Below are positions 843-37,314 of a stretch of 40,962 bases of DNA, piece by piece. Within the stretch, counting starts at the first letter, position 1. The number at the start of each line of letters is the position of its first letter. Position numbers and translations under genes: made by a program. Source of the DNA: an uncultured Clostridia bacterium (GTDB lineage: Bacteria > Bacillota > Clostridia > Oscillospirales > Oscillospiraceae); NCBI GenBank assembly GCA_946411545.1, contig CAMKEK010000001.1, positions 1-40,962 on the forward strand. The letters are read 5' to 3'. The notes below the pieces were generated by a model, which did not search any database, was not told the DNA's origin, and saw only the letters and a list, made by a program, of their open reading frames with translations.

Positions 843-1943
843 TCAAGTCGGATAAATCTTTTCCCCTCTGGCGGCGGCCTCCAGGATCCGCTTCTTCAGC
901 GCCTGGTATTCCTCCCGCGTCTGCCGCGGGCTCTGCAGCTGGGTCACACTGCCGCCCTGGGCCCTGCCCGTCTCATTGGGTCTAGCCTGGCCGGAGGCGA
1001 TGCTGGCCGCCACCCGCTCCTGGATGGCCCTGGCCATAGCCTCGTTCTCCGCCCGCCGGATCTCGTCCCGGTGCAGGGTATAATAGGCGTCCTTGACGCT
1101 CATGCCGATCTGTGGGCTGGTCCAGCGCCGGAAGGTCTCGTTCTGCAGCTCCCGCCGCAGGTCGAAGCCCGGGATGCTCTGCTGCAGCTCCGCTGCCTGC
1201 TGCACCAGCTTCTGGATATGGGCGCGGGTCTGGCGTTCCTCCAGATCCTGCTGCTCCCTGGCCTTCGTTTCCCTCTGGAAGCGCTCCAGCTCGTCCATCT
1301 TCCGGGCGGTGGCCACGTCGGTGCCCAGCTCCTCCGCCCGCTTTTCATACAGCGCGTCATCCTCCTGGATGGCCTTGCCCAGCGCCTCATAGTTGAGGCT
1401 GCCGTCAGCATTGGCCTCCACGCCGTAGTTGCGGCTCAGCACGGACAGCGGGCCCTTCAGTCCGTCCAGGATCCCGCTCACCTTTTTCAGACTCGCGTCC
1501 TGCTCGGCAAGCCGTCCCCGGACGATCTCCTGCATTTCCTGGTTCAGGGCCGGGTTCTGGGCCAGCAGCTCCCGCAGGCTCTGGGTTTTGCCGCCCTCCT
1601 GCGCCGCATCTGTCCCGCTCCCCTGCGCCTTGCCTTCCCCTGCAGGGGCCGGTGCCTTCAGCTGCCCGCCGGCGGGCGTGGTGTCCTTCCCGCGCATCCG
1701 CTGCCGGTATTTCTCGGCCTTGTCCGCCGGCACGCCCAGGCTCTCCAGGCTCTGCCCTGCGTCCTCGGCGGCCTTGCCTTCCCCTTGTGCGTTTGAGGTG
1801 TTCCCCACCCCAGCGGGCGCGCTGTCTTCCGCGCTCTGTTTCCCTGCTCCTTCGCCGCCTGCTGCCGCGCCCTCGCCTCCGCCGGAAGCTGCGCCTTCTC
1901 CCGCGAAGAACTGGATCGGCAGCCACATCTTTACCTTGCTCAT
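843..1943 (-). CDS. head scaffolding protein (coiled-coil, Gly/Ala-rich N-terminal part) with L27-like LPIQFFA N-terminal motif
   Basis: AAGGAG 7 nt upstream of the ATG; MSKVKMWLPIQFFAGEG...; long charged helical segments; position immediately upstream of the capsid gene. Confidence 0.7.
   Translation of the reverse strand: MSKVKMWLPIQFFAGEGAASGGGEGAAAGGEGAGKQSAEDSAPAGVGNTSNAQGEGKAAEDAGQSLESLGVPADKAEKYRQRMRGKDTTPAGGQLKAPAPAGEGKAQGSGTDAAQEGGKTQSLRELLAQNPALNQEMQEIVRGRLAEQDASLKKVSGILDGLKGPLSVLSRNYGVEANADGSLNYEALGKAIQEDDALYEKRAEELGTDVATARKMDELERFQRETKAREQQDLEERQTRAHIQKLVQQAAELQQSIPGFDLRRELQNETFRRWTSPQIGMSVKDAYYTLHRDEIRRAENEAMARAIQERVAASIASGQARPNETGRAQGGSVTQLQSPRQTREEYQALKKRILEAAARGEKIYPT
1642..1668 (-). 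repeat. degenerate family-1 hairpin element inside the scaffold gene
   Basis: GCAGGGGCCGGTGCCTTCAGCTGCCCG; same outline as the GTAGGGGCC elements but the stem has 2 mismatches; translates as APAPAGEG. Confidence 0.35.
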
Positions 1944-2018
1944 AAAATCTCCTTTTGTGACGTCCCTGTTTTGGCCGTTTGCAACCGGCCGGGCGGGCGA
2001 ACTCCCGTTTCACGCCTC

Positions 2019-2055
2019 CAGTTTACCGTCTCCGTGTCCCGTTTCTCTAGGCCGC
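2019..2055 (-). promoter_or_regulatory. 37-nt conserved box, copy 1 (identical to 17969..18005), upstream of scaffold/capsid genes; candidate late promoter or regulator target
   Basis: cagtttaccgtctccgtgtcccgtttctctaggccgc is 37/37 identical to the copy upstream of terS. In the minus sense it directly follows a terminator and T-run. Confidence 0.6.
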
Positions 2056-2088
2056 AAAAAAGCGGACTGCGAAAAAATCGCAGCCCGC
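2056..2088 (-). terminator. intrinsic terminator (minus sense) after the giant gene region
   Basis: Minus strand AGCGGGCTGCGA-TTTTT-TCGCAGTCCGCT followed by T6. Confidence 0.65.
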
Positions 2089-2121
2089 TCTCGATTTGTG
2101 TTTCTCCCCCTTGGGATCTCC

Positions 2122-2145
2122 GTAGGGGCGGATATCATCCGCCCG
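2122..2145 (-). repeat. family-1 hairpin element, variant stem (GTAGGGGCGGATATCATCCGCCCG), intergenic
   Basis: Same GTAGGGGC head; perfect stem GGGCGGAT/ATCCGCCC. Confidence 0.8.
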
Positions 2146-2159
2146 CCTTCGTCTAAACC

Positions 2160-2186
2160 GTAGGGGCCGACGCCCTCGGCGGCCCG
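2160..2186 (-). repeat. family-1 hairpin element, subtype A, intergenic
   Basis: GTAGGGGCCGACGCCCTCGGCGGCCCG; 27/27 identical to the copies at 7787 and 21817. Confidence 0.9.
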
Positions 2187-2202: not shown

Positions 2203-2233
2203 CTGAAAACTGAAATCTGAAATCTGAAAACTA
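2203..2233. repeat. heptad repeat (CTGAAAA/CTGAAAT x4) abutting the stop codon of the giant gene
   Basis: ctgaaaactgaaatctgaaatctgaaaacta; TGA at 2204, 2211, 2218 and 2225 covers all three plus-strand frames. Confidence 0.85.
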
Positions 2234-5200
2234 TTTCCGGTGCCACGGTGCCTTGCCGATGGTGCTCTGTGCATATCCCTTGGCGTAGTACAGCGCGTCC
2301 TTCTGGGCGTTGCTCAGCGGCATGGAGTCGATGAAGGCCAGCACCTTGTCCCGCTTGGATCCGTCGATGGTCTTCCCGTTTTCGTCCACGTCCGCCTTCA
2401 GGTCCTTGGTGCCCATGTAGCAGCTGTACCAGGTCTTCACGTCGATGCCCGCCGGCGCCGTCTCGTCCCGGTATTTCACATAGTTGCTCATCTGCGGGAA
2501 GGCCTCGGCATACTCCTCGTTGTCGTACAGGAACTCCCAGTAATCCACCTTGTTCCCGGCCGTCTCTTTGTCAAGTCCCCCATAGGTCACCAGCAGCTCC
2601 ACCGCCCGCTTCCGGTCGATGCCGCCCTCGTTCACCTCGGTCTTGATCTTGTCAAAGGCGATCCCGGTCACCACATAGCAGGTCCACTCCTGCACCGTCG
2701 CCCTGGCCTCGTCCTTGTCCATGGCGCAGTATTTCTCCAGCATTCCCGCGGCCTGCTCCTTGGAAAGCTTGGCCCCGCTCATGCCGTTGCCCTGATACTG
2801 GTCCTTGATGGCGCCGCGCACCTGGCTCCTGGCGTTCTTCTCGGTATAGCCCGCCGCCGTCAGCGCCTGCATGGCCTCCCGATAGGCAGCCTCGTCGTTG
2901 GCCAGGGCCGCCTCCTTCAGCTCCTTGTATGCCCCGCCGTTGCGCCACTCGAAGATCGTCCGGGACGCCTCCGCCTCCGTGTGGGCGATGCCCTTCTCCA
3001 GCAGCAGCTTCTTGGTCTGCTCCTCGTCCAGGAAGCCGTCCGCGAAGGCGTACTGCAGCTCCCGCTCCTCGCCCGCGTCATAGGTCTTGGCCTTCTGCCA
3101 CCCGGCCGCCGGCGCGATCAGGGTGTTGTACAGGCTGGTCACCTCCCGGGCCGCCGGTGCGATGCCGATGCCGGCGAACTGGTCCAGCATCTGCAGGGTC
3201 TTGAAGATCTTGCCCCACAGCGTCATGTTGCCGTACCAGGTGGCCTCGGTGGCCTTCTCCAGGCTGCCGTTGGCAAGCTTCACGGTCTCCTTCCAGATCC
3301 GGAACACCTCGTAAACCTTCTTCACGCTGCCCAGCACCATCAGATCCTTGTCCTCGCCCCGCAGCATGTTCACCACGTCTCCGATCACCGGCACCAGCTG
3401 TGTGGGATCCAGGTTGCCCCCGAAGTTCTTCCTGGCCGCCTCCCACCATTTCTGCAGGAAGCTCCTGTAGTCGTCGTCATCCCGGAAGGCGTCCGCGATG
3501 GCGGCGAACATGGCCGTGGCCGCGGCGGTGGCGGTGTAGACTGCGGCGGCCTTCGCCGCCTTGCGCCCGGCGGCGCGCAGGGCGTTCCGGTTCCCGCTGC
3601 GCTTGGCCAGGCTCGCCTCGCTGGCCACGTCCAGCAGCATGTTATAGGTCAGCGTTGGCTCCGCCTTGAACGCGGTAAACTCCGCCATCATCATGCTCTT
3701 GCTGCGCATGTTCTGGCTGCGGCAGATGGTGCCGTCCATCACCTGGGTGGAGAGGATCACCTCGTCAAAGCGCTCCGCCGTGGCCCGCATCAGCTCCTCG
3801 CCCCGCAGCTTGGTCTTCTCCCGCTGCTCGATCTCGCAGGCGTTCCACAGCGCGCCCCAGGTGGCCTGGTCGCCCCACTCGGCAAGCTTCGTGCCCTTGT
3901 CCGTCAGCCAGCTCCGCCGGTCCACGTCGTGCTTGATCTGCCGCCGGATGCCCGGGTTGATGTTGGTGTCGAAATAGCCCAGATCTTTCCACACTGCAAG
4001 CCCGGAATACTTCAGCGCCTTCTCCCGGCCGCCCTTCATGGCCGCGCCTCTGGCCAGATACTGCGCGTCGATCACCATGGACGCCCGCATGATGGAGGTG
4101 GGCTGCTGCAGCGCCACCCGCAGGTTGAAGCTGATGGCCGCCACCTTGGCCCGGCTCATCAGGTCCTTCAGGGTCTCCTCGCCCCGGCCGCCCTCGTTGT
4201 TGCCGTTCAGGTCCTGCAGGAAGGTGATGAAGTAGCTGCCCGCCTCCTTGCCGTAAACCCGCTCCAGCGTCTTCTGCACGCTCTCGGTGGTATACTGGCC
4301 GTCCTCGCTGCTCTCGCTGATATCCCGGTAGTTGTACCAGCGCATGGCGTCCACCAGCGGCAGGCCCAGGGCGTTGTACTTGGCCATGTCCGCCATGTGG
4401 TTTGCGAAGGTATCGAAGATGCTGTCCAGCACGATGGCGTTGTTGGCGTTTCTCACTGTGTTCTTGGTAAAGCCCATGGTCACCAGCCTGTACAGGTTCG
4501 CCCGGTCCGCGTCCGGGCTTCTGGCGTCCCGGCTTCGGCTGTCGGTCTTGATGGGGTAATAGTTCTCCTCCGTGAAGGAACGGATGCCCCACCGGGCCAT
4601 GGAGATCTCGTTGCCCCAGTCGCTGCCCTGGGTGTTCATGTACTTCTGCAGCGCGTCGGCCACTTCCTTCTGCCGCTCCGTCAGGCTGTCCACCATCTCG
4701 GCCACCGTCTCCAGATCCAGCAGATAGTTCTCGCTCTGCACCACCTCGCTGCGTCCCTGTCGGTAATTGGCCACCCGGATGCCGGCGCCCAGCAGGTGCC
4801 CCCGGGCCTGCTCCCTCTTCATCAGGCAGTAAAGGCCCATCAGCTGCGCCGTGGTCACCGTCACGGTCTCCGTCTCCCGGGTCTCGCCGCCGTCGTTTTC
4901 CTCCGCCGCGATGTCCTGCAGCCTCCGCCGCAGCTCAAAGCTGTGCACCTCCTTCTCCCAGGCCTGCACCTCCTGGCTGCTGTATGCCTTCTCCGCATAC
5001 TCGATCACCTGCTGCATGTTCATGGCCATCTTGCCCCAGCCCCGGCGCAGCTCCCGGAAGATCTGCTGTCCGCCGCTGCCGAAGCGCTTGAAGGCATAGA
5101 AGGGTGTGGCGTTGTCCCAGGCCAGGATCCGCCGCAGCTTGTCCCCTCTGGTGCTGCTTCTGCCCTGAACCTTCTCCAGGTCCCGGATGCTGCCGCTTGC

Positions 5201-8200
5201 GGCCTCTGCCACGCTCCTGCCGTTCTCGTCCGCCAGCAGGGTGTCCGCCTTGCGGATCGCCTCGCTGAAGGCCGTCAGGATCTCCTCCAGGCTCTGCAGC
5301 TGCTCCAGGTCCATCTGGTAGATGCTCCAGGCCTCGCCCTTCCTGGCCCGCTCCACAAAGGGCTGGATCATCTCGTCCATGAACGGCAGCAGGTCAAGCT
5401 GCACCCCGCTGGCAGGCAGCTCACCCCGCTCCTGCGCCAGCGCCGCCTTGGCCAGAATGTTCTGCAGCTCCTGCATCTGCTGGATGTACTGTTTCCGGTA
5501 CTTCTCCTGCGCCCTCGGGCTCAGCGCGTCGATGCTCAGAAGGAACTCGCTCAGCGCCTGTTTCCATACCTCCGGCACATGCTTCTTGCTGCTGTTCTCC
5601 TGCAGGATTTTGGCAAGCCGCTCCCGGGCCTTGGCCACCCGGACCCGCGCCCGGTACTCCTGCTCCCGCTGGACGGACCGCTGCCGCAGCTCATAGGCCT
5701 TTTCCCTGGCCAGCTGATTGCGCAGCCGCTTCTCCTCCCGCAGCCGCTCCTGCAGGTCGTCCCGCCGGGCCCGCTCCCACTTCATCTGGTCCTCCGCGTC
5801 GTTCAGCTGCTGCTGCCGCGCCCGGTCCTTTGCCGCGTACTTCTGCTCCAGTCTCTCCATGGCTCTCTGGTAGTTCCGGTCCGCCATGGTCTCCTTCACG
5901 CCAACCTCGCCGCTCAGCAGCCGGTCGATGATCTCGTTGCCCAGCTCCTCCGAAGCGTCCCGCAGCCGGTAGCCCTCAAACATCCGGAAGTCCTGGGGCT
6001 CCAGACTCTGCAGCACGCCCAGCACCTCATACAGCTGGTCGCTGGGTGCCATCGCGTCCTCCGGGAACAGTTCCTCCCCGAAGGTGCCCCGCAGATCCTG
6101 ATACAGCTGGTCCATGCTCATGCCGTCCCGGCTGAAAGACAGCGTGCCGAAGTTCCGCTTCCGGAAGTCGGCAAAGTCCGGGATGTCGCTGCCGAACTGC
6201 TCGGTGCCGATGCGGTGGTTCCTCAGATACTCCCGCAGATCCCGCCGCAGCTCCGCCCGCTCGTCCTCGGTATACCAGCTGTTCTCCAGAATGTGCCGGG
6301 CAAGCGTCACCGCCTGCCGCCTCAGCTCGTTGAAGAAGCCCACGCCGCCGCCCTGCTGGTTCTGCACCATGAAGTCGCCCAGCGCCTGCAGCTGCGCCGC
6401 GATCTCCGCCGCATCCGCCTGACTGTCCGTCTGCTTCAGCAGCGCCTTGGCCATCCGCCGCACGTCCTCCGGCAGCAGCGTCGCCTGCCCCGGCTCCGTC
6501 CGCCTGGCCTCCCGCCGGTAGTATTCCACATACTCCTGCAGCGCCTTGTTCTCCTCCCGCAGCGCACGCATGTTCCGGGCGGCCTGCTCCGGGTTTGCCT
6601 CCCGCCAGGCGGCAAGGGCTCTCTCCGCCGTCCGCTTCAGCGCCGGCGTCTGCTCCGCCTTCTTCAGCGCCTTCTCCGCCCGCTCGATCTGAGCCTCCAG
6701 CTTCTCAATCTCCCCCCGCAGCTTCTCGGCCTGCGCCTTTGCCTCCTCCGTGTAGGGGCCGACGCTCTCGGCGGCCGGCTCCCCGGTCTCGGCAGCCAGC
6801 CCATTCTCCAATTCCGAATTCTCCCGCTCCAGTGCCTCCAGCGCCGCTCTCCTGCGCTCCAGCTTCTCCTGGGCCCGCTCCATGCTCCGCACCTTCCGGG
6901 CGTACTCCTGCACGTCCAGGCCGGCTCTGGGCGTCTCAGCGGCCTCCATCAAAAGCTCCCGATCCGTCGGCGCCGCATCCCGCTCCTGATATAGCGTCCC
7001 GTCATCCCTCTCTGTGTAGGTAAACAGTTTGCTTTCGTCACTCTGACTGGTGTACAGCAATCCGCCCTCAGCTCGTGGAATGTTCTTGACAGCACTATAA
7101 AGCTGTGATACATTGTAACTGTCACCTGAAGGACTCCGGGTACTCCCGCTTGCGGGGTTGAAACCTTGTCCGAGGGTGACATTTTCTATATCACGAAAAG
7201 CGTAGGACCGCGCGCTTCCGTCAGCGTTCTGGACAATGGTTCCCACCATAGCGCGTATTTCTGTGACCTGCTCGCCGTCCCTGGTTGTAGTGTACTTATA
7301 GAGGTTATAAAGCCGATAGCCATATAGTGCTTTATACTTGTTGTCGGTATGAACCCGTTCCACATTCAGCAGGATGCTGTTTTTGAATATCTCCTTTAGA
7401 TGTGGAATTATATCCAGCGTTGCCTGGTAGTCAAAATCAGGGTCTGTATTCAACCGATTGGCAATGCTTTCCGATACGATGTCTTCGTTAAGATAAGCGG
7501 TTATATCAAGCTGTTGAATGTCCACCGTTGTTCTTTTCCCGTAAGCTTTTCGGAATGCTGCCCTCCCTGCTGCATAGAGACTTCTACGTCCACGCACCAC
7601 ACTTCTGGCGTGTACAGGCTCCAGGACAAGCGGCGTGATATCGTTCCGCATGGTCTGCTCAAAATTTGCAGAAAGCGGAAAATGGTCTCCCAGCCTCCGG
7701 CTCAGATCGTCCAAGCCTAATTTCGCATACCGTTCCCTGATTGGGTTATAAATCTCCCGCTCCTCCAGCTGCGTCTCGTCCCCTTCGTAGGGGCCGACGC
7801 CCTCGGCGGCCCGCTCATTGCCTTCCCCTTGAGGGGAAGGTGCCCGAAGGGCGGATGAGGTGTCCCCCGCCGCAGCGGAAGACGTGCTGCTCTCCGCATT
7901 CCGAACTCCGGACTCCGCATTGGCCCCGTTCCTGGCCGCCGCCACGAAGGCCCGATCCCAGATGTCCTGCAGCTCGTCCAGATATCCCTCCATGGCCTTG
8001 GCCTCTTCGTGGAATGCCTCCACGCCCTCGAAGGCGTCGGCGATCCGCGCCGCCCAGCGCCGCAGCCAGCGGCGGATGCTGTTGAACAGGCCCGGATTAT
8101 CCTGCGCCAGGCTCTCCGCCACCGTGGTCCGCCGCAGCATCATCTCGCAGCCGTCGCACACCACCTCGTCTATGGCCGCGTCATAGCTCAGCTTCCCCGT

Positions 8201-11200
8201 GGTGTCCCTGTCCAGCTTCGCCAGCACCAGCTCGCCCAGGCTCTTCCCCTGATACTCGCTCAGATGCGTCAGCAGAAAGTCCGTCAGCTCCCGGTACTGG
8301 GCTGCGCCCTGATCCTGGATGAAGTGGGTCAGCTCGTGGGCAGCCGTCCGGATGATGGCCACCTGGCTCAGACTCCGGCTGCTGTAGGCCCCGGCGTTCA
8401 CATCCAGGAAGATGCCCTCCCCGCTGCGATAGCCGCCGTTGGCCCCCTGGAACCGGCCCTTGCTGTCCTTGCGGCTCTGGTAGAAGTGTACGTTCACCCC
8501 GCTGATCTCCGCCAGCATGGTCACCGCCTTGATCTGCTTCTTCTGTCGCCGCGTCAGCTTCGACTGGTCCACCGCGTCATACCGCACGCCGTTCATCACA
8601 GCCCCGTCATAGCTCACCGTGCCCTTGGCTCTGGGCCCCCGCGTTCCTGTCGCCGCAGCGACAGATGAGGCTCCCGCCGCAGTGGTGCCCACTCCCACGG
8701 TAACGCCCGCCGCCTCCACCGAGGCGGCGTTTTTTTGCGCCGTCTGGGCAACTTCCGCCCCCGTCTGTACGGTCTCCCCCGTGTAGGGGCCGGCGCCCTC
8801 GACGATCCGCCCGCTCTCCGGCGCCGAATTCTGAATTCCGGCCTCCGCATTGGCCGCGCTCCGTCCCTGCTCCACCGCAAGGCGCAGCTGATCCTCCGTC
8901 AGGCTCTCCAGCAGGATCGGGCTCCGCTCTATGATCTGCTCCACCGTAAGGCTGGTGCGCTTGCCGTAAAGCTTTTCCGCCTGCTCCCAGGCCGCGGCAT
9001 AGGCCTCGATGTTCTGCCCGCTCTCATAGGCCGTAAAGGCCAGCGGCGCGCTCTCGCCCAGCCGCTCCCGCAGCGTGTTGCCAAGCTTCCGCACCGCCTC
9101 CGGCAGCCGCTCGTCCTCCGCGTCCAGCACCTGGGTGCCCGTCTCTGTGTGCACCTCCACGCTGCCGTCTGCCCGCATGACGCCGATGCTGCCCGCCTGG
9201 CCTTCCTCCAGCGTCACGCTCTCGTTCTTGTCCGCCGCCGTCACGTCCTCGGTTGCGGTGTCCTCCGTCTCCCCGGCTGTGGCATTGTCCGCCGTTCCGG
9301 TTCCCGCGTCGGTGACCATCCGGCTCTCCCCGGCATACAGACCGTCGCCCAGACGCACGGTGCCCATGTTCTCGGCCCAGGCGCTGCTGTGGGTTTCGTT
9401 CAGGATGTTGTCCGGGCTCATCTCCTCCAGCACCCGCCGGCCGTACTTGCTCTCGCCCAGGATGCGCTGCCCGTCAGGCCCCAGCAGCTTCCCGCTCTTG
9501 AAGTCCTCGACGGCCTTGTCCGCCGCCCGGTCGCTGGTGGCCTCCCGGATCCGGTTCCACATCTCCTGCGCCGCGTTGGTGATCAGCCTGGCCAGGTTCC
9601 CGGCATTCTCTCCCTCGCCAAGCTCCGTCAGCCGCTCCTCCACCGCCGCGTTCATGGTCTCCTGGTCCGCCTCGGTGATGGCCGCGTCCAGCTTTGCCGC
9701 GCCGAAGCCCCGCAGCGCCTTCCCGCTGTTCTGATACCCCTGCGCCATCTGATAGGCCGCGCTGTCCTCCGGCAGCATCGCCGCCTCGTTGAAAAGGGTC
9801 TCCGCCGTCTCGCTGTCCACGGTGCTCACGCCCTGGACCGCCTGCTGCCCGCCGGCGCCGAAGATGCCGCCCACGGCCTCGCTCACGAAGTCCCAGGCCA
9901 TGTCCTCCATGGTCTCCTTGGAAGCTTGCTGTTCCGCCTGCTCCGGGCTCATGGTCACGCTGTACTCCGTCACCTTCTGGTTGTATTCGCTCTGCCGTCC
10001 GTTGACCCACTCGTCCGCGGCAAAGCCCATGAAGGAGCTGAACAGGCCCTCCGCGCCCTCGAACATGCCCTGAATCCCCGTGTTCTTCAGGAACTCCCCG
10101 ATGTTCTTCGGCGCGCCGGTCTTCAGCAGGTGATCCAGCGGCAGATACTCGCTCCCGGTCTCCGCCGCCCAGCAGAAGGCGGCATACAGCAGCGCCTGGC
10201 CATAGTCGCCCGTCCGGGCCAGTGCCTCGTCATAGCCGCTCTCTGCCGCGCCGCCGCCCATCATGATGGCCGTCATCGCCGCGCCCAGCACATGGCCCCA
10301 GCCCAGGCTCTGCAGCGTGCTGTTGCCGATCTGGTAAAGGTCGCCCAGACCCCGGTCCTTGCCGAAGAAGCGGATGGTGCCCAGGTCGTTCAATGCCTCG
10401 GCGGATCCGCCCGCGATGGCGTTGGCCGCCTCAAAGCCGTTGGCGTAATCCCGCTCCGTGACGTAGCCCTTCTCCGCGTACTCCGCGGCGTCCAGCAGGA
10501 AGTATACCCCCGCGATGGGCATGCCCAGCACGCTTGCGATGCTGCCCGCAGCGCCGCCCCAGGCGCTGGTGTTGCCCCAGTCCTGATACTCCTGCAGCTC
10601 TGCGTTCTTCTTCTGGTGGGCAATGGAATTGTTCACACTGCGGGCAAAGGCAAAGGCCTTCTCCTTGGCGTCCTCTCCCTCCTGTCCGTACAGATAGCCG
10701 AAGATCTCCTGCTGCTCCTGGGTCCACTCCTCCGTCGGCCCGTTCTCGTCATAGTCCAGCCGGTTCCGTTCGTAGAAGCTGCTTGCGTCCTCTCTGTTCG
10801 CCGCCTCCGACCACGACTCCTCCATCCAGCCCTCAACCTTCTCCTGCCGGTCCATCAGATCCTGGCTGTAGGCGTTCATGCCCGCTGTGGCCGCCGCCGC
10901 AAACTCCGTGTCCTCCGGATCCGTCGCCCGCACATACAGGTCGCTGTACCGCTGGGCCCCGGAGAACTGCTCATACAGATACGCCCGGGTATAGTCCTCC
11001 TGGGCTGCCGCCGCCTCCTCACGCACCGGCGCCGCCGCAGCATCCCGGTTCTCCTGAGCCGCCTGATACTCCTGCCACTGCTCTGCCGTGATCAGGCCAA
11101 ACTCCTGCGCCTTCTCCCAGCCGTGCTCGGTCAGGCGGCCTTCCTCGTCCGTCAGCTCCGTATCGTCCCAGAACAGATCGGTCAGCGTATCGGCGATTGC

Positions 11201-12046
11201 CTTCTCCTCCGCGTTCAGGCCCTGCTCCCAAACCGTGGCGATCTTGTCCGCCCTGGAGTCCTCCAGCGCCTTCTCCGCCGCCTGCTGCCGCTCATAGGCC
11301 GCGTCCGCCGCTGCCGCGTTCTGCTCCGCCCATTCCTCCATGCTCATGCCGCCCACCCGGGCGTTGGCCATGTCCAGGGAATAGTCCTGATAGGCCTCCC
11401 AGGCCTCCTTGCTTCCGAAGTCCTCGATGCCCTGCAGAACGTAGTCCAGTCCGCCCCGTCCGGCATCCGTGCCGAAGGGTCCCGGCATGCTGCCCCAGCC
11501 TTCCTCCGCCGGCCGGTAAAAGCCCGGCAGCACCGGCGCCGCCGTCTGCGTCCCGCCGGCTGTCACACCCTCAATGTCTTCCCCTGTAGGGGATGGCGTC
11601 CTCGACGTCCCGTCGCCGGGCAGGCTGCTCTCCCCCCAGCTCCATTCGTCCTCCTCGTCCTCGTCCTTCTTCCTCGCTGTGGTGTCCACGGCCCCCACGC
11701 CAAGGCCCATGGCCGCAAGCCGCGCCGTATAATCGCTGAACCAGTCCTTCCGCGTCCCGCCCGTCTCCGGGTTCTGCCCCGCAAGGCCGCTCAGCGTTCC
11801 GAAGTCCAGCCCCGTCACATACCGTCCGCTGTAGTCATTCCCCACCACCCGCGGCCCCGTCTGCCGGGAAGTATTCGATCTGTTCCCGGTAATGTTGCCC
11901 ATGATGATTTCAAACGCGCTTCTCGGTTCCTCGCTCTGGCTCCCGCCGTTTGAGGCCCCATAGGTTTTCTCGCTGCTGGAACCGCTGGAGCTGCTGGAAC
12001 TCCCGCCCCCGTTGATGTTGTTCATGATCCGCTCAAATTTGCTCAT
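2231..12046 (-). CDS. giant multi-domain virion protein (~3270 aa), polyvalent-protein-like, with an HExxH metallopeptidase module, hydrophobic segments and a long coiled coil
   Basis: Single uninterrupted ORF. I prefer the ATG at 12046 (GGAAGGAGACGGGC upstream) over the ORF-track ATG at 12064. HELTH lies at 8324..8338. The gene occupies the slot after the portal where MuF/gp7-type minor head proteins usually sit. Confidence 0.8.
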   Translation of the reverse strand: MSKFERIMNNINGGGSSSSSSGSSSEKTYGASNGGSQSEEPRSAFEIIMGNITGNRSNTSRQTGPRVVGNDYSGRYVTGLDFGTLSGLAGQNPETGGTRKDWFSDYTARLAAMGLGVGAVDTTARKKDEDEEDEWSWGESSLPGDGTSRTPSPTGEDIEGVTAGGTQTAAPVLPGFYRPAEEGWGSMPGPFGTDAGRGGLDYVLQGIEDFGSKEAWEAYQDYSLDMANARVGGMSMEEWAEQNAAAADAAYERQQAAEKALEDSRADKIATVWEQGLNAEEKAIADTLTDLFWDDTELTDEEGRLTEHGWEKAQEFGLITAEQWQEYQAAQENRDAAAAPVREEAAAAQEDYTRAYLYEQFSGAQRYSDLYVRATDPEDTEFAAAATAGMNAYSQDLMDRQEKVEGWMEESWSEAANREDASSFYERNRLDYDENGPTEEWTQEQQEIFGYLYGQEGEDAKEKAFAFARSVNNSIAHQKKNAELQEYQDWGNTSAWGGAAGSIASVLGMPIAGVYFLLDAAEYAEKGYVTERDYANGFEAANAIAGGSAEALNDLGTIRFFGKDRGLGDLYQIGNSTLQSLGWGHVLGAAMTAIMMGGGAAESGYDEALARTGDYGQALLYAAFCWAAETGSEYLPLDHLLKTGAPKNIGEFLKNTGIQGMFEGAEGLFSSFMGFAADEWVNGRQSEYNQKVTEYSVTMSPEQAEQQASKETMEDMAWDFVSEAVGGIFGAGGQQAVQGVSTVDSETAETLFNEAAMLPEDSAAYQMAQGYQNSGKALRGFGAAKLDAAITEADQETMNAAVEERLTELGEGENAGNLARLITNAAQEMWNRIREATSDRAADKAVEDFKSGKLLGPDGQRILGESKYGRRVLEEMSPDNILNETHSSAWAENMGTVRLGDGLYAGESRMVTDAGTGTADNATAGETEDTATEDVTAADKNESVTLEEGQAGSIGVMRADGSVEVHTETGTQVLDAEDERLPEAVRKLGNTLRERLGESAPLAFTAYESGQNIEAYAAAWEQAEKLYGKRTSLTVEQIIERSPILLESLTEDQLRLAVEQGRSAANAEAGIQNSAPESGRIVEGAGPYTGETVQTGAEVAQTAQKNAASVEAAGVTVGVGTTAAGASSVAAATGTRGPRAKGTVSYDGAVMNGVRYDAVDQSKLTRRQKKQIKAVTMLAEISGVNVHFYQSRKDSKGRFQGANGGYRSGEGIFLDVNAGAYSSRSLSQVAIIRTAAHELTHFIQDQGAAQYRELTDFLLTHLSEYQGKSLGELVLAKLDRDTTGKLSYDAAIDEVVCDGCEMMLRRTTVAESLAQDNPGLFNSIRRWLRRWAARIADAFEGVEAFHEEAKAMEGYLDELQDIWDRAFVAAARNGANAESGVRNAESSTSSAAAGDTSSALRAPSPQGEGNERAAEGVGPYEGDETQLEEREIYNPIRERYAKLGLDDLSRRLGDHFPLSANFEQTMRNDITPLVLEPVHARSVVRGRRSLYAAGRAAFRKAYGKRTTVDIQQLDITAYLNEDIVSESIANRLNTDPDFDYQATLDIIPHLKEIFKNSILLNVERVHTDNKYKALYGYRLYNLYKYTTTRDGEQVTEIRAMVGTIVQNADGSARSYAFRDIENVTLGQGFNPASGSTRSPSGDSYNVSQLYSAVKNIPRAEGGLLYTSQSDESKLFTYTERDDGTLYQERDAAPTDRELLMEAAETPRAGLDVQEYARKVRSMERAQEKLERRRAALEALERENSELENGLAAETGEPAAESVGPYTEEAKAQAEKLRGEIEKLEAQIERAEKALKKAEQTPALKRTAERALAAWREANPEQAARNMRALREENKALQEYVEYYRREARRTEPGQATLLPEDVRRMAKALLKQTDSQADAAEIAAQLQALGDFMVQNQQGGGVGFFNELRRQAVTLARHILENSWYTEDERAELRRDLREYLRNHRIGTEQFGSDIPDFADFRKRNFGTLSFSRDGMSMDQLYQDLRGTFGEELFPEDAMAPSDQLYEVLGVLQSLEPQDFRMFEGYRLRDASEELGNEIIDRLLSGEVGVKETMADRNYQRAMERLEQKYAAKDRARQQQLNDAEDQMKWERARRDDLQERLREEKRLRNQLAREKAYELRQRSVQREQEYRARVRVAKARERLAKILQENSSKKHVPEVWKQALSEFLLSIDALSPRAQEKYRKQYIQQMQELQNILAKAALAQERGELPASGVQLDLLPFMDEMIQPFVERARKGEAWSIYQMDLEQLQSLEEILTAFSEAIRKADTLLADENGRSVAEAASGSIRDLEKVQGRSSTRGDKLRRILAWDNATPFYAFKRFGSGGQQIFRELRRGWGKMAMNMQQVIEYAEKAYSSQEVQAWEKEVHSFELRRRLQDIAAEENDGGETRETETVTVTTAQLMGLYCLMKREQARGHLLGAGIRVANYRQGRSEVVQSENYLLDLETVAEMVDSLTERQKEVADALQKYMNTQGSDWGNEISMARWGIRSFTEENYYPIKTDSRSRDARSPDADRANLYRLVTMGFTKNTVRNANNAIVLDSIFDTFANHMADMAKYNALGLPLVDAMRWYNYRDISESSEDGQYTTESVQKTLERVYGKEAGSYFITFLQDLNGNNEGGRGEETLKDLMSRAKVAAISFNLRVALQQPTSIMRASMVIDAQYLARGAAMKGGREKALKYSGLAVWKDLGYFDTNINPGIRRQIKHDVDRRSWLTDKGTKLAEWGDQATWGALWNACEIEQREKTKLRGEELMRATAERFDEVILSTQVMDGTICRSQNMRSKSMMMAEFTAFKAEPTLTYNMLLDVASEASLAKRSGNRNALRAAGRKAAKAAAVYTATAAATAMFAAIADAFRDDDDYRSFLQKWWEAARKNFGGNLDPTQLVPVIGDVVNMLRGEDKDLMVLGSVKKVYEVFRIWKETVKLANGSLEKATEATWYGNMTLWGKIFKTLQMLDQFAGIGIAPAAREVTSLYNTLIAPAAGWQKAKTYDAGEERELQYAFADGFLDEEQTKKLLLEKGIAHTEAEASRTIFEWRNGGAYKELKEAALANDEAAYREAMQALTAAGYTEKNARSQVRGAIKDQYQGNGMSGAKLSKEQAAGMLEKYCAMDKDEARATVQEWTCYVVTGIAFDKIKTEVNEGGIDRKRAVELLVTYGGLDKETAGNKVDYWEFLYDNEEYAEAFPQMSNYVKYRDETAPAGIDVKTWYSCYMGTKDLKADVDENGKTIDGSKRDKVLAFIDSMPLSNAQKDALYYAKGYAQSTIGKAPWHRK
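6752..6778 (-). repeat. family-1 hairpin element in frame in the giant gene (PAAESVGPY)
   Basis: GTAGGGGCCGACGCTCTCGGCGGCCGG. Confidence 0.85.
7787..7813 (-). repeat. family-1 hairpin element in frame in the giant gene (RAAEGVGPY)
   Basis: GTAGGGGCCGACGCCCTCGGCGGCCCG. Confidence 0.9.
7825..7868 (-). repeat. family-2 element (GGGGAAGGTG-hairpin-GGATGAGG) in frame in the giant gene (APSPQGEG)
   Basis: ccccttgaggggaaggtgcccgaagggcggatgaggtgtccccc; related to 18351..18390 and 25784..25828. Confidence 0.6.
8783..8809 (-). repeat. family-1 hairpin element in frame in the giant gene (GRIVEGAGPY)
   Basis: GTAGGGGCCGGCGCCCTCGACGATCCG. Confidence 0.8.
11586..11612 (-). repeat. family-1 hairpin element, diverged, in frame in the giant gene (GTSRTPSPT)
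   Basis: GTAGGGGATGGCGTCCTCGACGTCCCG. Confidence 0.7.
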
Positions 12047-12109
12047 GCCCGTCTCCTTCCGCATTGTCCCGATATGCCGCAGGGGCGGGGTCTTGCCCCG
12101 CCCGCTTTC

Positions 12110-13670: not shown

Positions 13671-15887
13671 TCAGTCCGGCTGGCTGGCCCGCGCCGCCCG
13701 CTCCCGGGCCTTGCGCACATGGGTGGCCTCTCCCGCGTTTCCGGTGGCGGCGGCCTCCTGCGTGGGCATCGCCGCCTGCCCGGAGCTGGGGAACGCGCCT
13801 CCCGCCATGGCAGCGCCTCCCGTGATTGCCTGGGCAAGCCCCGGCACCAGGTCCGGCCGGTACTGCTGGGCCAGCGTCAGCGCCATCTGCTGGAACTGCA
13901 CCAGCTTCTGATACATGTCCGCGTTCATCGCGATCCGCTGCGCCACCTTGTCCTTGCCTTCAAACTCCATCATGTCCAGCACCGCCATGGCCATGTCCCC
14001 GTTCTGGGGGCTGAAGAAGCCCGCTCCGTATAGCTGCATGGCCAGCTCGTTCTGGGCAAGCTTGGTGTAGGGGTTGCGCTTCTGGGGCTCGATCTTGATA
14101 TCGAACACCGGCAGCCGGAACCCCATGTCCACGCTGCCCATCATGCCCTGCCACTGGGGCTGCAGTCCCTGGTTGGAGTACCGGGTAAACTCATCGCTGC
14201 CGTCGCGCCCCGTGATGCGGAAGGTGCGCGGCATGTCATAGAACTGCCTCACCAGCTCGATCACCTGATCCACCAGCTCCGCGAAGGCCCGATAGCTGGC
14301 CTTGGCGCTGTCCCGGCTTCCCTTGCCGCTGGCTTCCTGCAGCGCCGCGATGGCGGAGGCCGCCGTGGCCCCGCTGGTGGAGATGCCGTTGGCCGTCTCC
14401 GTGTTGCCTGTGGTCTCCCGCAGCTCGCTGATGGTCTGCTCCAGGACGTTGATGTAGTTGCCGTGCAGGCTGTTCACCTCCACCCGGCGCAGGCTGTCCT
14501 CGCCCAGGTTGCCGCTGACGTGCACCAGCGCCTTGTGCAGGTCCAGAAACTCCTCCTCGTTCACCGCGCCGTCGCTGCGGGCGAAGTAACGCGGTGTGGC
14601 CCCGGCCATGGTGTTCTTGATGAAGGCGGTCTTCATCAGGTCCACCTGGGTCTGCTCGTTGGCCGCCAGATCCACGAAGCCATAGCCGCAGGGGCTCCCC
14701 TCCACAGGGAACAGCACGTCAAACACAAAGGGATACTTCCCGTGCTCGTAAAGTCCCCGGCTGGAATTGGTCGCACGGAATCCGGAATTCGGAAGCGCAG
14801 GCACAGCGCCCGGCATACCCGGCGCACCCACACCCGGTCCCGCTCCCATGCCCGGCACAGCGCCTGCAGGGGCCGGCGTCCTCGGCGGCCCGCCCTCTGG
14901 TTCCCGCAGCCCGGCGGCGCCTGGTATGCCTCCCATGCCCGGCACAGCGCCTGTAGGGGCCGGCGTCCTCGACGGCCCGCCCCCGGTATCCCCCAACCCG
15001 GCAGCGCCCATGCCCGGTCCTTCTCCGTAGGGGCCGACGCCCCCGGCGGCCCGTCCTCCCGGCACAGCGCCCGGCATCCTCGTGTCCTGTCCGGTCTGCT
15101 CCGTGGCGTACAGCACCACATCCCCCACGAACTGGCAGTAATGCAGCACCCGTCTGCCGCCCTCGAAGCGGTGGTAGTAGTGGTTGATCACCGTGAACTG
15201 GTTGTCCGTGGGCACCTGATCGTCATACAGGAACTTGGTGGCCTGGAAGGCGTCCGGCTTCAGCCGCCCCCGCAGCTGGGGATACTGCTCGATCAGCGTG
15301 TCCCCGTCCTCCAGGTAGGTGTAGAACAGGTGCCGGCTGTCCTGGATGTCCGCCACGCCCGGCTCCCAGAACAGGTTCAGAAGGTTCACGGTCTGGATGC
15401 TGATGTCCCCCAGCCCGTTCAGCTTTGACTTGTCCCAGGTGATCATGTATACGCCCGTGCCGGTCTTCAGCTTCTGCCACATGGCCCGGTCATAGGTGTG
15501 TTCAAAGCGGTTCTGCTCCAGGATGCAGGGGATCACGGCTGACAGCATCCTGGCCTCCTGCTGGTCTCCCTTCTCTCTGGGCAGGATGTTGGGCTCCGGA
15601 TAGGCCTCCATGGCGTCCGCGTGCTTGGAGGCGATCACGTTGTGCAGCCACCCGCTCTTGGCGTTGAACTCCGCCGGGTCCAGCTCGCTGACCTTGGCCT
15701 CCTCCATCTCGTTGCGCAGCTTCCACCAGTTTTCCGCGTTCTGCACCCGGCGCTCCAGCCGCGCCTTGCCGGTCTTGTACTTCTGCAGAATCCGCATCCA
15801 GTCCCGCAGGGTCTCCTTGGTGATGGGGCCCTTCCGGTCCTCCTCCGCACGCCATCCCGGCGCCTGCTCGTTGATAATCTGATCCAT
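13671..15887 (-). CDS. portal protein carrying a ~100-aa Gly/Pro/Ala-rich insertion
   Basis: Immediately downstream of terL; size; ATG at 15887 preceded by GAGGAGGAG (MDQIINEQ...). The ORF-track start at 15905 is less likely. Confidence 0.8.
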   Translation of the reverse strand: MDQIINEQAPGWRAEEDRKGPITKETLRDWMRILQKYKTGKARLERRVQNAENWWKLRNEMEEAKVSELDPAEFNAKSGWLHNVIASKHADAMEAYPEPNILPREKGDQQEARMLSAVIPCILEQNRFEHTYDRAMWQKLKTGTGVYMITWDKSKLNGLGDISIQTVNLLNLFWEPGVADIQDSRHLFYTYLEDGDTLIEQYPQLRGRLKPDAFQATKFLYDDQVPTDNQFTVINHYYHRFEGGRRVLHYCQFVGDVVLYATEQTGQDTRMPGAVPGGRAAGGVGPYGEGPGMGAAGLGDTGGGPSRTPAPTGAVPGMGGIPGAAGLREPEGGPPRTPAPAGAVPGMGAGPGVGAPGMPGAVPALPNSGFRATNSSRGLYEHGKYPFVFDVLFPVEGSPCGYGFVDLAANEQTQVDLMKTAFIKNTMAGATPRYFARSDGAVNEEEFLDLHKALVHVSGNLGEDSLRRVEVNSLHGNYINVLEQTISELRETTGNTETANGISTSGATAASAIAALQEASGKGSRDSAKASYRAFAELVDQVIELVRQFYDMPRTFRITGRDGSDEFTRYSNQGLQPQWQGMMGSVDMGFRLPVFDIKIEPQKRNPYTKLAQNELAMQLYGAGFFSPQNGDMAMAVLDMMEFEGKDKVAQRIAMNADMYQKLVQFQQMALTLAQQYRPDLVPGLAQAITGGAAMAGGAFPSSGQAAMPTQEAAATGNAGEATHVRKARERAARASQPD
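14866..14892 (-). repeat. family-1 hairpin element in frame in the portal gene (GPPRTPAPA)
   Basis: GCAGGGGCCGGCGTCCTCGGCGGCCCG. Confidence 0.8.
14953..14979 (-). repeat. family-1 hairpin element, subtype B, in frame in the portal gene (GPSRTPAPT)
   Basis: GTAGGGGCCGGCGTCCTCGACGGCCCG; 27/27 identical to the copy at 24348. Confidence 0.9.
15027..15053 (-). repeat. family-1 hairpin element in frame in the portal gene (RAAGGVGPY)
   Basis: GTAGGGGCCGACGCCCCCGGCGGCCCG. Confidence 0.85.
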
Positions 15888-15897
15888 AGCTCCTCCT

Positions 15898-15914
15898 CTA
15901 AGCACTAAGCACTA
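15898..15914. repeat. heptad stop repeat (CTAAGCA x2 + CTA) between terL and portal
   Basis: Minus strand TAGTGCTTAGTGCTTAG has TAG in all three frames. The first TAG is the terL stop, and the repeat runs straight into the portal RBS GAGGAGG. Confidence 0.85.
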
Positions 15915-17354: not shown

Positions 17355-17355
17355 A

Positions 17356-19779: not shown

Positions 19780-20213
19780 GCTCTCACCTCCACGCAGTTT
19801 TCTCCCGTAGGGGCCGTCGTCATCGACTGCCCGTATGAGATGGGGGAGACGGGGCCTGCGTTGGAGATGTGCAAGTCGTCCCCGCCGAAGCGCTCCCACA
19901 GTCTCCGGTTGTTCTCCTCCATCACCTGCATCACGCCCCGCAGCGTATTGAGAGTCGCCTCCTTCTCCTCGATCTCCTTCTCCAGTTCCTCAACCAGATC
20001 CTCGTCCCGCCGGTGCTGCCGGCGCAGGTTCCGGTTCTCCTCCTGCAGCGTCTCGATGGCGATGGCCTGATAGGTGTCCCGCTCGTTCAGCTGCTGAAAC
20101 CGGTCCTCCTGATCCTCCCGCAGGGCCTTTGCCGCCGCCGCGGTTCCCCGGGCGCTGCGCAGCTCCCGCTCCGCCTTCATCGCTCTCTTCTTCCAGTAAT
20201 GGTCAAAAATCAT
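19776..20213 (-). CDS. coiled-coil protein (145 aa), function unknown
   Basis: AAAGGAG 8 nt upstream of the ATG at 20213; heptad-rich charged sequence. The C-terminal 20 aa are encoded by a family-1 element. Confidence 0.6.
   Translation of the reverse strand: MIFDHYWKKRAMKAERELRSARGTAAAAKALREDQEDRFQQLNERDTYQAIAIETLQEENRNLRRQHRRDEDLVEELEKEIEEKEATLNTLRGVMQVMEENNRRLWERFGGDDLHISNAGPVSPISYGQSMTTAPTGENCVEVRA
19807..19833 (-). repeat. family-1 hairpin element, diverged, forming the 3' end of the coiled-coil gene
   Basis: GTAGGGGCCGTCGTCATCGACTGCCCG. Confidence 0.65.
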
Positions 20214-21253: not shown

Positions 21254-22299
21254 GTCTGGATCCCCACCCAGGGCGCCAGAATGGTTTTCAGCGCCCCGGC
21301 CAGCTTCGCGCCCGTCTCCGGGTCCTGCAGCTTCACCGCTTCCAGGCTGTCCCGCAGCGCTGCCAGCTCCCGCTGCACCGCCTTGAAGTGGAAGCCGAAC
21401 TCCGCAATGTCCTTGTTGGAGGCGGCCAGCTGTTTCCGTGCCTGTTCCAGCTCATTCCGGGCCGCCGCAGCCGTCAGCTCCGCCTCCCGCAGCTTTTCTG
21501 CGGTCTCTTCCCCGGCCTTTTCCGCCTTCTCCTTCTCCTTCTGCGCGGCGCGAAGCAGCTTGTCCTTCTCCTGCTCTGCCTTCTCCAGGTCCTTCTGCGC
21601 GACCTCCAGCCGCTTTTTCCAGGCCTCGTCCGCCTCTGCTCGGGCGGCGCTCGCCGCCTCCCGGATGGCCTCTTCATCCCGCTCAACGGCAACCGTCTGC
21701 GGCCTGGTCTCCAGCTCCCGGATGGTGTCCCGCGCAAGCCGCAGCTGCTTCTCCGCCTGCTCCAGCTCTTGCCTGGCCTCCTCCGCAGCCTTTTCCGCCT
21801 CGGCAGCCTGCGTTCTGTAGGGGCCGACGCCCTCGGCGGCCCGCTTCGCCTCCGCCTCCGCCGCGGCCTTCTCCTCCTTCAGCTTCCGGATCTCCTCCTT
21901 CAGCTCCTTCTCGCTCAGGCTCTCCGCGTCCACGCTCTCCGCGAACTCCTCCCGGTCACTTTCCGGCACGGAAAGCAGCAGCAAAGCCTTGGAAATCGGC
22001 AAATCCGAAATATATTTCGCATTTGTCTCCGGCCCGAAGAGCCCCAGCTGATCCGCCCCGTACTCACGGAAAATGCGCATGTAGTTCTGGGCGTGCCGGT
22101 CGGAGAAGGTCGTCTCCCTCTCCAGCCAGCCCAGCCATTCCCCGTGGCCCACCAGCTCCTTGGCCTCGCACAGCCGCCGCCCGATCTCGATCCCGCACAG
22201 CATCGTCACCCGCCGCCCGGTCTCCCAGATCATCCGGATCTCCGCCGCCACCGTCTCCGCCGTCCGTTCTCCCTGCCTTGTGGAAAGCTCTTCGTTCAT
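21250..22299 (-). CDS. DUF3102-like protein with long C-terminal coiled coil
   Basis: N-terminus reads IEIGRRLCEAKELVGHGEWLGWLERETTFSDRHAQNYMRIF, the pattern I associate with DUF3102. Confidence 0.6.
   Translation of the reverse strand: MNEELSTRQGERTAETVAAEIRMIWETGRRVTMLCGIEIGRRLCEAKELVGHGEWLGWLERETTFSDRHAQNYMRIFREYGADQLGLFGPETNAKYISDLPISKALLLLSVPESDREEFAESVDAESLSEKELKEEIRKLKEEKAAAEAEAKRAAEGVGPYRTQAAEAEKAAEEARQELEQAEKQLRLARDTIRELETRPQTVAVERDEEAIREAASAARAEADEAWKKRLEVAQKDLEKAEQEKDKLLRAAQKEKEKAEKAGEETAEKLREAELTAAAARNELEQARKQLAASNKDIAEFGFHFKAVQRELAALRDSLEAVKLQDPETGAKLAGALKTILAPWVGIQT
21817..21843 (-). repeat. family-1 hairpin element in frame in the DUF3102-like gene (RAAEGVGPY)
   Basis: GTAGGGGCCGACGCCCTCGGCGGCCCG. 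Confidence 0.9.
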
Positions 22300-24296: not shown

Positions 24297-24685
24297 AGGA
24301 AGTCCTCCAGATCGAAGATCTTCGTCGCCTCCGCAGGGCCTTCTCCTGTAGGGGCCGGCGTCCTCGACGGCCCGTCCTCTTCGTTGACGTTCCCCTCTGT
24401 GATCTCCATCCGGAAGCGCACGTCCGCGCCCTTCCAGTAATACCGTACAGCTCGCTTGAAGGCCTCAAGGTCGCTGATGCTTCCGCCCACGCCCTTGGCC
24501 ACTGTCTTCATACATTCCTCAAAGCTCCGGCCCTCCAGAACCTTCCGGCAAAAGCGATCGCTTTGGCGGCAGAACTCCGTCAGCGCTGCCAGCACCGCCT
24601 CCTTCATGGCCTCTTCCTTCTGGCCGAACTTCCCGGCCCCGCATTCCCGCCGCAGCTTCTCAGCGGCTTCCTCACAGCTGCTCAC
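24293..24685 (-). CDS. PcfK-like protein
   Basis: Small acidic protein directly upstream of the PcfJ-like gene; central ECMKTVAKG...AFKRAVRYYW and a C-terminal IFDLEDFL tail; AAGGAGG plus GTG start. Confidence 0.55.
   Translation of the reverse strand: MSSCEEAAEKLRRECGAGKFGQKEEAMKEAVLAALTEFCRQSDRFCRKVLEGRSFEECMKTVAKGVGGSISDLEAFKRAVRYYWKGADVRFRMEITEGNVNEEDGPSRTPAPTGEGPAEATKIFDLEDFL
24348..24374 (-). repeat. family-1 hairpin element, subtype B, in frame in the PcfK-like gene (GPSRTPAPT)
   Basis: GTAGGGGCCGGCGTCCTCGACGGCCCG. Confidence 0.9.
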
Positions 24686-24696
24686 TGAATACCTCC

Positions 24697-24725: not shown

Positions 24726-24731
24726 CAGCAC

Positions 24732-37311: not shown

Positions 37312-37314
37312 CTC

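Follow-up and report, generated by a model that had tools for sequence, protein, structure and literature searches.

We analysed contig CAMKEK010000001.1 of an uncultured Clostridia bacterium (assembly GCA_946411545.1; 40,962 nt, here called the window), a temperate tailed phage genome in which a short hairpin element, termed family 1, recurs within and outside a giant gene. A first-pass annotation had noticed four copies in the giant gene and suggested that they sit between protein modules, where they could serve module swapping between phages, flexible linkage or proteolytic processing. The results showed that this four-copy observation is a special case of a genome-wide feature. Judged by its sequence, the family 1 hairpin belongs to the GTAG-type repetitive extragenic palindromes (REPs), as part of a REP/REP-associated tyrosine transposase (RAYT) system found in rumen and gut Oscillospiraceae-type Clostridia, because it combines a GTAG tag with a palindrome, lies mostly extragenically in its hosts and flanks RAYT-type genes. 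It is probable that these host REPs persist in permissive sites of the phage and mark flexible linkers there, and that they do not define, swap or process modules.

The element is a DNA unit of 28 nt (28–30 nt), which reads CGGGCCGCCGAGGGCGTCGGCCCCTACA on the minus strand; its plus-strand consensus, (C/T)GTAGGGGCCGRCGYCCTCGRCGGCCCG, starts with GTAG. After the GTAG, the sequence folds into a 6-bp GC stem, a 1x1 purine-purine (A·G) mismatch, 2 bp and a tetraloop, with a stability of about -11 kcal/mol as DNA and about -14 kcal/mol as RNA. The facing stem positions 10 and 19 covary (A..G, n = 92, and G..A, n = 83, versus A..A, n = 5, and G..G, n = 1), indicating that the purine-purine mismatch is maintained. 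No conserved sequence was found in the flanks, where likeness between copies ends at about 28 nt, so the unit comprises about 30 nt.

We searched the window with the 28-mer. With up to 3 mismatches, 8 copies were found compared with 0.00 expected from shuffles, and with up to 6 mismatches there were 12, all 12 on the minus strand, starting at 1641, 2159, 6751, 7786, 8782, 11585, 14865, 14952, 15026, 19806, 21816 and 24347. The copies have 0 to 6 mismatches to the nearer of two variants; four of the 12 are decayed, and those at 8782 and 1641 lack the canonical hairpin. Eleven copies lie inside ORFs (open reading frames) with a GC content at third codon positions of 0.73–0.87 (at least 0.83 for eight of them) and only the 2159 copy is intergenic, so the extragenic location typical of GTAG-type REPs does not hold for the copies in the window. 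A CRISPR-like array was rejected, since the spacings are irregular (74 nt to about 7 kb) and copies lie inside ORFs. An inverted REP doublet (REPIN) in the phage was likewise rejected, as all 12 copies share one orientation.

The ORFs read these copies in two different frames, which indicates that the element is not a peptide motif. The copies at 6751, 7786, 8782, 15026 and 21816 are read in a RAAEGVGPY-like frame (frame 0), and those at 1641, 11585, 14865, 14952, 19806 and 24347 in a GPSRTPAPTGE-like frame (frame 2); the third, Arg-rich frame is used by none of the 11 intragenic copies. Variant and frame correlate in the window, variant 1 going with frame 0 and variant 2 with frame 2; this rests on about 10 copies, two of which are tandem duplicates, and was left uninterpreted.

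The distribution of the element in bacterial genomes was determined by an exact-match scan with the 27-mer GTAGGGGCCGRCGYCCTCGRCGGCCCG, which has three degenerate positions, using one genome per species. The 27-mer was carried by at least 120 stretches from at least 71 assemblies, counted by accession prefix. Among the matches listed, nearly all sources were metagenome-assembled genomes (MAGs) of rumen or gut Oscillospiraceae, Ruminococcaceae or Clostridia, with several stretches per MAG, and 11 of 119 host copies looked intragenic versus 389 of 600 random control positions under the same criterion. A few matching MAGs bear the label Kiritimatiellae, perhaps through mis-binning or because the element has a wider range. 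Inverted pairs 120–165 nt apart were present in four host loci (L001, L012, L043 and L073), and many host copies were single. The defining features of GTAG-type REPs and RAYTs have been described (PMC3733652, PMC8266576, PMC5581495). A minority of GTAG REPs is intragenic in bacteria (PMC3733652), and work on the TnpA-REP of E. coli, including a cleavage-and-strand-transfer assay, described GTAG-strand-specific recognition and a requirement for the stem irregularity (PMC8266576).

Among the 120 matches listed, a RAYT-type gene was present in 10 host loci. At locus L068, four REP copies surround and penetrate an ORF of 167 aa (1609-2112, minus strand), which is bracketed by the copies at 1577(+) and 2147(-). 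This RAYT-like ORF matched the NCBIfam model for REP-associated tyrosine transposase (REP_Tyr_transpos) with E = 3e-17 and Pfam Y1_Tnp with 27.3 bits, above the gathering cut-off of 23. A profile built from eight RAYT-type proteins had E. coli TnpA-REP (4ER8) as its best match (E = 1.2e-12), with IS200/IS605 transposases at about 1e-3, and both the HxH motif and the D-Y..(5)..Y-I..N-P signature were invariant in these proteins. The RAYTs of the host loci are 42-65% identical to each other, yet at least 71 species-level assemblies share the 27-mer.

The RAYT genes themselves (L068, L051, L070, L106, L045, L027, L012, L096, L094 and L120) hold REP or REP-like sequence at two fixed coding positions. 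At the first, it is translated as VGADALGGP after 'CILSEI'; at the second, just past the HUH motif, as GGPPRASAPT or GPSRTPAPT, with 2-4 tandem copies in L045 and L106. G42, P49, P103 and T104 are invariant in the RAYT alignment, which gives these segments the look of old sequence that the gene has retained.

We found the 27-mer pattern in 32 stretches of IMG/VR viral contigs, and REPs occur on at least 25 viral contigs. No RAYT was found in the window, and a search of 2.9 million viral contigs for a RAYT relative gave only one match, indicating that the phage copies are non-autonomous. Orientation is uniform in the window (12:0) and in each of the seven multi-copy viral contigs. Relative to the local gene, the CTAC form lies on the sense strand in 24 viral copies versus 5, and in 54 host copies versus 52, among the matches listed.

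The giant ORF (2231..12064, minus strand) encodes a putative polyvalent-type virion-associated protein of 3277 aa and is the second gene downstream of the portal gene, with a 394-aa ORF in between. Its C-terminal ~1500 aa match phrog_22978, a giant family of unknown function. Pfam gave nothing above threshold on the whole giant protein; its segments had only faint, sub-threshold matches, to eCIS_core and WLM at the HELTH region and to LPD3 in a low-GC segment. ART-PolyVal, ADPrib_exo_Tox, MuF_C and LPD domains occur in proteins with the same HELTH module, and the position of the giant ORF after the portal and terminase genes also fits; the giant protein is therefore a probable member of the phage polyvalent proteins (PMC5512222). 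The metallopeptidase (HELTH) module, delimited by BLASTP against 41 homologues, spans aa 1145-1407 (7844..8632, minus strand) and is the only part of the region common to all homologues. In these alignments, the next conserved block of the giant protein starts at about residue 1687 (with the homologue P0001) or 1835.

We modelled residues 1040-1800 of the giant protein with AlphaFold2 (AF2). The mean predicted local distance difference test score (pLDDT) was 53, and 56% of residues fell below 50, so the placements of the copies in this model carry little statistical weight alone. The low overall confidence is largely due to the low-GC module, for which the alignment contains no homologues; the peptidase fold (residues 1145-1380) reached a pLDDT of 70-86. 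A Foldseek search of the model against the PDB gave no match with E <= 0.001.

The four copies in the giant gene were found where the first-pass annotation had placed them, all on the minus strand. The 11585..11612 copy, decayed with 3 mismatches to variant 2, lies at residue 151 in low-complexity N-terminal sequence and is read as GTSRTPSPTGE (frame 2). The 8782..8809 copy (residues 1086-1094), also decayed with 3 mismatches, is read as RIVEGAGPY about 52 aa before the peptidase fold and is predicted as coil with a pLDDT below 50 (model residues 47-55). The 7786..7813 copy (residues 1418-1426; 1 mismatch) lies in the linker that follows the peptidase module, is read as RAAEGVGPY and is predicted as coil with a pLDDT of about 30 (model residues 379-387). 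The HELTH motif itself, at residue 1243, is bounded by these two copies, as had been proposed. The 6751..6778 copy (residues 1763-1771; 2 mismatches) is read as PAAESVGPY and lies at a break between two long helices in a conserved coiled-coil block, where the pLDDT dips to 54; P0001 aligns straight across this site (query 1687-1842).

The proposal that the elements sit between modules thus held for the two that flank the peptidase and are predicted to be disordered; it did not hold for the 6751 copy, which is at a helix break within a block conserved in P0001, and the 11585 copy is in the low-complexity N-terminus. The annotation had also called the copies hairpin elements and quoted ..GVGPY..-type peptides for them. 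Such peptides are encoded by three of the four, the exception being the 11585 copy. The canonical hairpin of the 8782 copy is gone on both strands, and that of the 11585 copy is gone on the sense strand only and kept on the GTAG strand. The giant gene is not enriched for the element: it holds 4 of the 12 copies and 24% of the genome, with 2.9 copies expected (binomial P(>=4) ~0.32), and enrichment was rejected. Giant-protein relatives at 38-43% identity (L153-L160, GC 56-59%) contain no REP copy.

A second hairpin element, family 2, directly adjoins the 7786 copy, in agreement with the annotation, and was located at 7820..7863 (minus strand). It is a composite of two hairpins and reads ACACCTCATCCG, a small hairpin and then CACCTTCCCCTCAAGGGGAAGGC. 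The window has one copy and the fetched loci have 18; in L024, L072 and L143 family 2 stands directly beside a REP, and its order and orientation match those seen in the window, an arrangement that resembles the mosaics of bacterial interspersed mosaic elements (BIMEs) in E. coli. In the AF2 model, family 2 and the 7786 copy together (residues ~1405-1426) form coil with a pLDDT of about 30.

Between the 7786 and 6751 copies lies a low-GC cassette (aa ~1427-1691; ~6990..7785, minus strand), with 40-57% GC in most 90-nt windows, compared with flanks of about 65-70% GC. None of the retrieved proteins is homologous to the cassette, whose one match is the faint one to LPD3; it is probably an effector module acquired recently. 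The annotation had placed this module in the segment bounded by the two copies, and it does lie there; only its 5' edge abuts an element, the 7786 copy ending 5 aa before it. Its 3' edge is the junction motif LYQERD, 66 residues before the 6751 copy, and two REP copies as borders of the cassette were therefore rejected. The YQERD (residues 1692-1696; 6977..6991, minus strand) is a candidate module border or cleavage motif and is equivalent to the KFQERE and KYSMRE motifs of homologues.

The comparison with homologues pointed to this motif at module borders. The module content of P0005, P0009 and P0010 changes exactly at [KR]YS[ML]R[ED] motifs, with no REP there, and the border motif [KR][YF]S[ML]R[ED] or YQERD occurs 2-3 times per homologue protein versus about 0.05 expected. 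In the broader form [KR][YF]S[MLFQ]R[ED] or YQ(E/Q)R(D/E), it recurs in P0005, P0009, P0010, P0017, P0027, P0028, P0038, P0001 and P0003. From these sequence comparisons, the border motif appears to be a better candidate than the REP for a border or cleavage signal; it is a candidate junction for cleavage or recombination. It is our own observation and not an established cleavage site; a keyword search of PMC5512222 did not retrieve it. Elements were also found near modules in other phage proteins: in P0002 (phage contig L161), the peptidase module is preceded, at a distance of 12 residues, by a one-mismatch element; the giant ORF of L145 carries an exact copy in the long low-complexity linker that leads to a different HExxH module; and in P0001, a peptide from another hairpin family lies at the junction before the peptidase module.

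Outside the giant gene, the intergenic copy (2159..2186, minus strand) lies in the 3' untranslated region (UTR), 45 nt past the stop codon of the giant ORF. In tandem with it is a second, different CTAC-tagged hairpin, GGCGGGCGGATGATATCCGCCCCTAC (2122..2147, minus strand), and downstream of both REP-type hairpins a terminator-like hairpin is followed by a T run (2055..2088, minus strand); the last two were read from the sequence. This succession after the giant ORF is the kind of 3' UTR setting in which REPs are typically found. Three copies (14865, 14952 and 15026) lie at 14865..15053 (minus strand) within an insertion in the portal protein that is rich in Gly and Pro and about 108 aa long (residues 274-381), where they are read in two frames. 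The insertion contains an 87-nt tandem duplication (14843-15008), whose units are 89% identical and have one REP copy each. It is absent from the relatives L121, L134 and L140, and L130 has a single copy at this spot.

The remaining copies lie in smaller ORFs, all on the minus strand. The copy at 24347..24374 encodes GPSRTPAPTGE in the C-terminal tail of a 130-aa ORF; in the window and in L128 the element lies about 25 residues before the C-terminus of this protein, in different frames, and L144 has none there. A consensus copy at 21816..21843 is read as RAAEGVGPY in a 349-aa coiled-coil ORF, whose relatives carry copies elsewhere, several of them in L144. On the L144 contig (IMGVR_UViG_3300037400_002447), several full or decayed copies (AEGVGPY, AEVVAPY, AEGVAPY, DAGPY) lie at ~7000-8200, each followed by AExAE coiled-coil sequence, and at least 8 REP copies share one orientation throughout. 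A decayed copy lies near the C-terminus of a 215-aa ORF (19806..19833), and a strongly decayed REP-like copy (1641..1668) lies in the N-terminal linker of a 366-aa ORF (843-1943). In the relatives of the latter protein (L130, L132 and L145), the N-terminal linker contains peptides of other hairpin families (APSPQGEGNE, GQLPLKGKA and SAMPTASHQGEA), suggesting that several unrelated repeat families colonise the same permissive linkers.

The window starts and ends with an identical 54-nt sequence (1-54 = 40909-40962), indicating a complete contig of about 40.9 kb, either circular or circularly permuted. PHROG matches across it identified a temperate tailed phage, with the small terminase (17356-17952), large terminase (15912-17396), portal gene (13671-15905) and integrase (29787-30896, plus strand), as well as an internal virion protein, a tail protein, an endolysin and a replication initiator. 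Almost all of the genome is coding. The 12 copies are confined to the part from 1.6 to 24.4 kb, and the 16.5 kb from 24400 to 40900, which contains the lysogeny region, lysis genes and tail genes, has none. An Rfam scan of the window gave no match. Megablast of 20 kb against GenBank phages returned a single match of 522 nt and no near-identical genome, exact look-ups of three window proteins found none of them, and a metagenome scan found no close relatives of giant-protein residues 1040-1800.

These observations are best explained if the REP copies entered the temperate phage through the action of a host RAYT on single-stranded DNA, for which lysogeny is the most plausible stage; recombination with host DNA would be an alternative route. 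On the RAYT route, the cognate RAYT would carry out cleavage and strand transfer on single-stranded DNA. Because the phage genome is almost entirely coding, only harmless insertions would persist, namely those that keep the reading frame and avoid the Arg-rich frame and the stop-containing orientation. The sites left to surviving copies would be disordered linkers, surface loops, C-terminal tails or 3' UTRs. Within the giant polyvalent protein, such a tolerance filter would leave copies in the linkers around the peptidase module and in the helix-helix loop, where they would mark permissive linkers. That several copies are already decaying is what would be expected of passengers without a phage function.

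Several points weigh against this explanation. The filter of frame and stop codons predicts a bias of only about 2:1, weaker than the orientation bias seen in the phages, which leaves a strand-specific insertion mechanism or selection at the level of the phage as an unexplained component. No near-identical phage pair with and without a copy was found that would show insertion and its boundaries directly. A copy in the linker before a peptidase-type module recurs in the giant proteins of three phages (the window, L161 and L145), which could exceed mere tolerance. In addition, the L068 ORF scored 62.9 bits on the NCBIfam equivalog model, below its curated cut-off of 80.

The annotation's idea of micro-homology, under which the REP copies would be portable identical sequences used by phage or host recombinases to exchange giant-protein modules between phages, would fit the two copies bracketing the peptidase module, the one abutting the 5' edge of the low-GC cassette, and the exact or near-exact copies before peptidase-type modules in L161 and L145, with another hairpin peptide at the P0001 junction. 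BLASTP homology to L153 and L159 also begins beside the 6751 copy, at residues 1778 and 1769. This start was rejected as a REP recombination point, since P0001 aligns across the site and neither L153 nor L159 has a copy. The remaining evidence makes the idea unlikely: the 3' edge of the cassette is YQERD without a REP, the modules of P0005, P0009 and P0010 are swapped at KYSMRE-type motifs where no REP lies, 8 of the 12 copies lie in non-modular genes with the giant gene not enriched, and similarity between copies stops at about 28 nt. Micro-homology as the driver of module swaps was thus not borne out. The homologue comparison that the annotation had called for gave a divided answer, with copies before peptidase-type modules in L161 and L145 and changes of module content elsewhere in P0005, P0009 and P0010. 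The same was true of the domain and disorder prediction: the 8782 and 7786 copies are in low-pLDDT coil and the 6751 copy at a helix break, the last within a conserved block. In view of the copies in L161 and L145, an occasional role of the REP in recombination may exist, though these results do not support it as such.

An improbable explanation, to about the same degree, is that the elements are kept as cis-acting signals in the late transcript or the replicating DNA, such as mRNA-stabilising or processing hairpins, translational pause sites or strand-specific signals. The uniform orientation in the window and in the seven multi-copy viral contigs and the 24:5 ratio relative to the gene strand, with hosts unbiased, would agree with such a role, as would the hairpin stability as RNA and the position of the lone intergenic copy just before a terminator, the classic site of an mRNA-stabilising REP. 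Four of the 12 copies are decayed, however, two of them without the hairpin; relatives at 38-43% identity have no copies, copy positions differ between homologous genes of related phages, Rfam gave no match, and stop codons and peptide tolerance account for part of the orientation bias. Far less credible is a motif at the protein level (..AEGVGPY..) that works as a linker or is cut by the embedded metallopeptidase. In the giant gene, three of the four copies do read ..G(V/A)GPY.., and polyvalent proteins are thought to be processed by their own metallopeptidase domains (PMC5512222). Half of the intragenic copies, however, among them one of those in the giant gene, read GPSRTPAPTGE; a further copy is intergenic, those in hosts lie mostly outside genes, nucleotide identity is far above what a 9-aa motif needs, and the border motif is a better candidate. 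The annotation itself had considered a purely protein-level role less likely, which is supported by the two frames used even within the portal gene and by the intergenic copy. Its suggestion of processing sites was not supported, since the peptide changes with the reading frame and another motif recurs at homologue module borders; its suggestion of flexible linkers stood, as the translated products look like harmless flexible linker peptides.

A further reading, which we regard as doubtful, is that temperate phages, beyond receiving REPs by accident, are vehicles that move REPs between Oscillospiraceae species and that the co-oriented linker copies, which recur ahead of the peptidase module in giant polyvalent proteins, are identical 28-nt sites that occasionally mediate effector-cassette exchange. 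It would explain the identical 27-mer in at least 71 species despite RAYTs at 42-65% identity. REP/RAYT systems are described in the literature as being passed on vertically and not found on elements that move horizontally (10.1101/2021.07.10.451892, PMC5581495), and this reading, if true, would contradict the view that this holds strictly. Co-oriented, in-frame REPs on phages are in any case unusual against that description of a vertical, non-mobile system. In place of the textbook extragenic, chromosomal, vertically inherited REPs, those reported here lie on temperate phages, mostly in frame inside genes such as the portal and giant polyvalent genes, and in the same orientation within each phage.

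Reading the element as a host REP gives it a concrete identity in place of a speculative signal for module swapping or processing. For annotation, it would mean that AEGVGPY, GPSRTPAPT and APSPQGEG in gut and rumen phage proteins are repeat-derived linker insertions and not motifs. For REP biology, phages would provide a natural assay of tolerated insertion sites and a possible route of horizontal spread.

The protein setting resembles that of the polyvalent proteins, in which an embedded zincin-like metallopeptidase has been proposed to cleave the polypeptide into units (Iyer et al. 2017, PMC5512222). The likeness consists of a giant multi-module protein near the head and portal genes with an embedded metallopeptidase, and of homologues that carry ART-PolyVal, MuF_C and LPD domains and shuffle modules (PMC5512222). 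The window protein differs in having no Pfam match above threshold and no structural match. A keyword search did not find the words 'linker' and 'low-complexity' in PMC5512222, which accordingly does not describe repeat elements in linkers.

The element itself is most like the GTAG REPs and RAYTs ('REPtrons') of E. coli, Pseudomonas and Stenotrophomonas. It shares with them the GTAG and GC-rich imperfect palindrome with a conserved stem irregularity, many dispersed copies that are chiefly extragenic in bacterial genomes, copies flanking a single small HUH/Y1 transposase gene whose closest structure is E. coli TnpA-REP, and a mosaic association with other hairpin motifs, as in BIMEs. The system differs from REPtrons in its lineage (Clostridia, Oscillospiraceae-type MAGs), in a 27-mer common to at least 71 species-level assemblies despite RAYTs only 42-65% identical, in RAYT genes that contain REP-like sequence at two fixed positions, and in copies on temperate phages that are co-oriented, mostly in frame inside genes and without inverted doublets.

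A second comparison is with Rickettsia palindromic elements (RPEs), which are about 100-150 bp long, have no GTAG tag or known RAYT partner and belong to an obligate intracellular bacterium. Like RPEs and other repeats resembling miniature inverted-repeat transposable elements that lie in frame within protein-coding genes (reviewed in PMC10969869), the phage copies are selfish palindromes inside ORFs that keep the reading frame and add short peptides at permissive surface or linker sites of unrelated proteins. They differ from RPEs in that the unit is 28 nt (9-10 aa) and lies on a phage.

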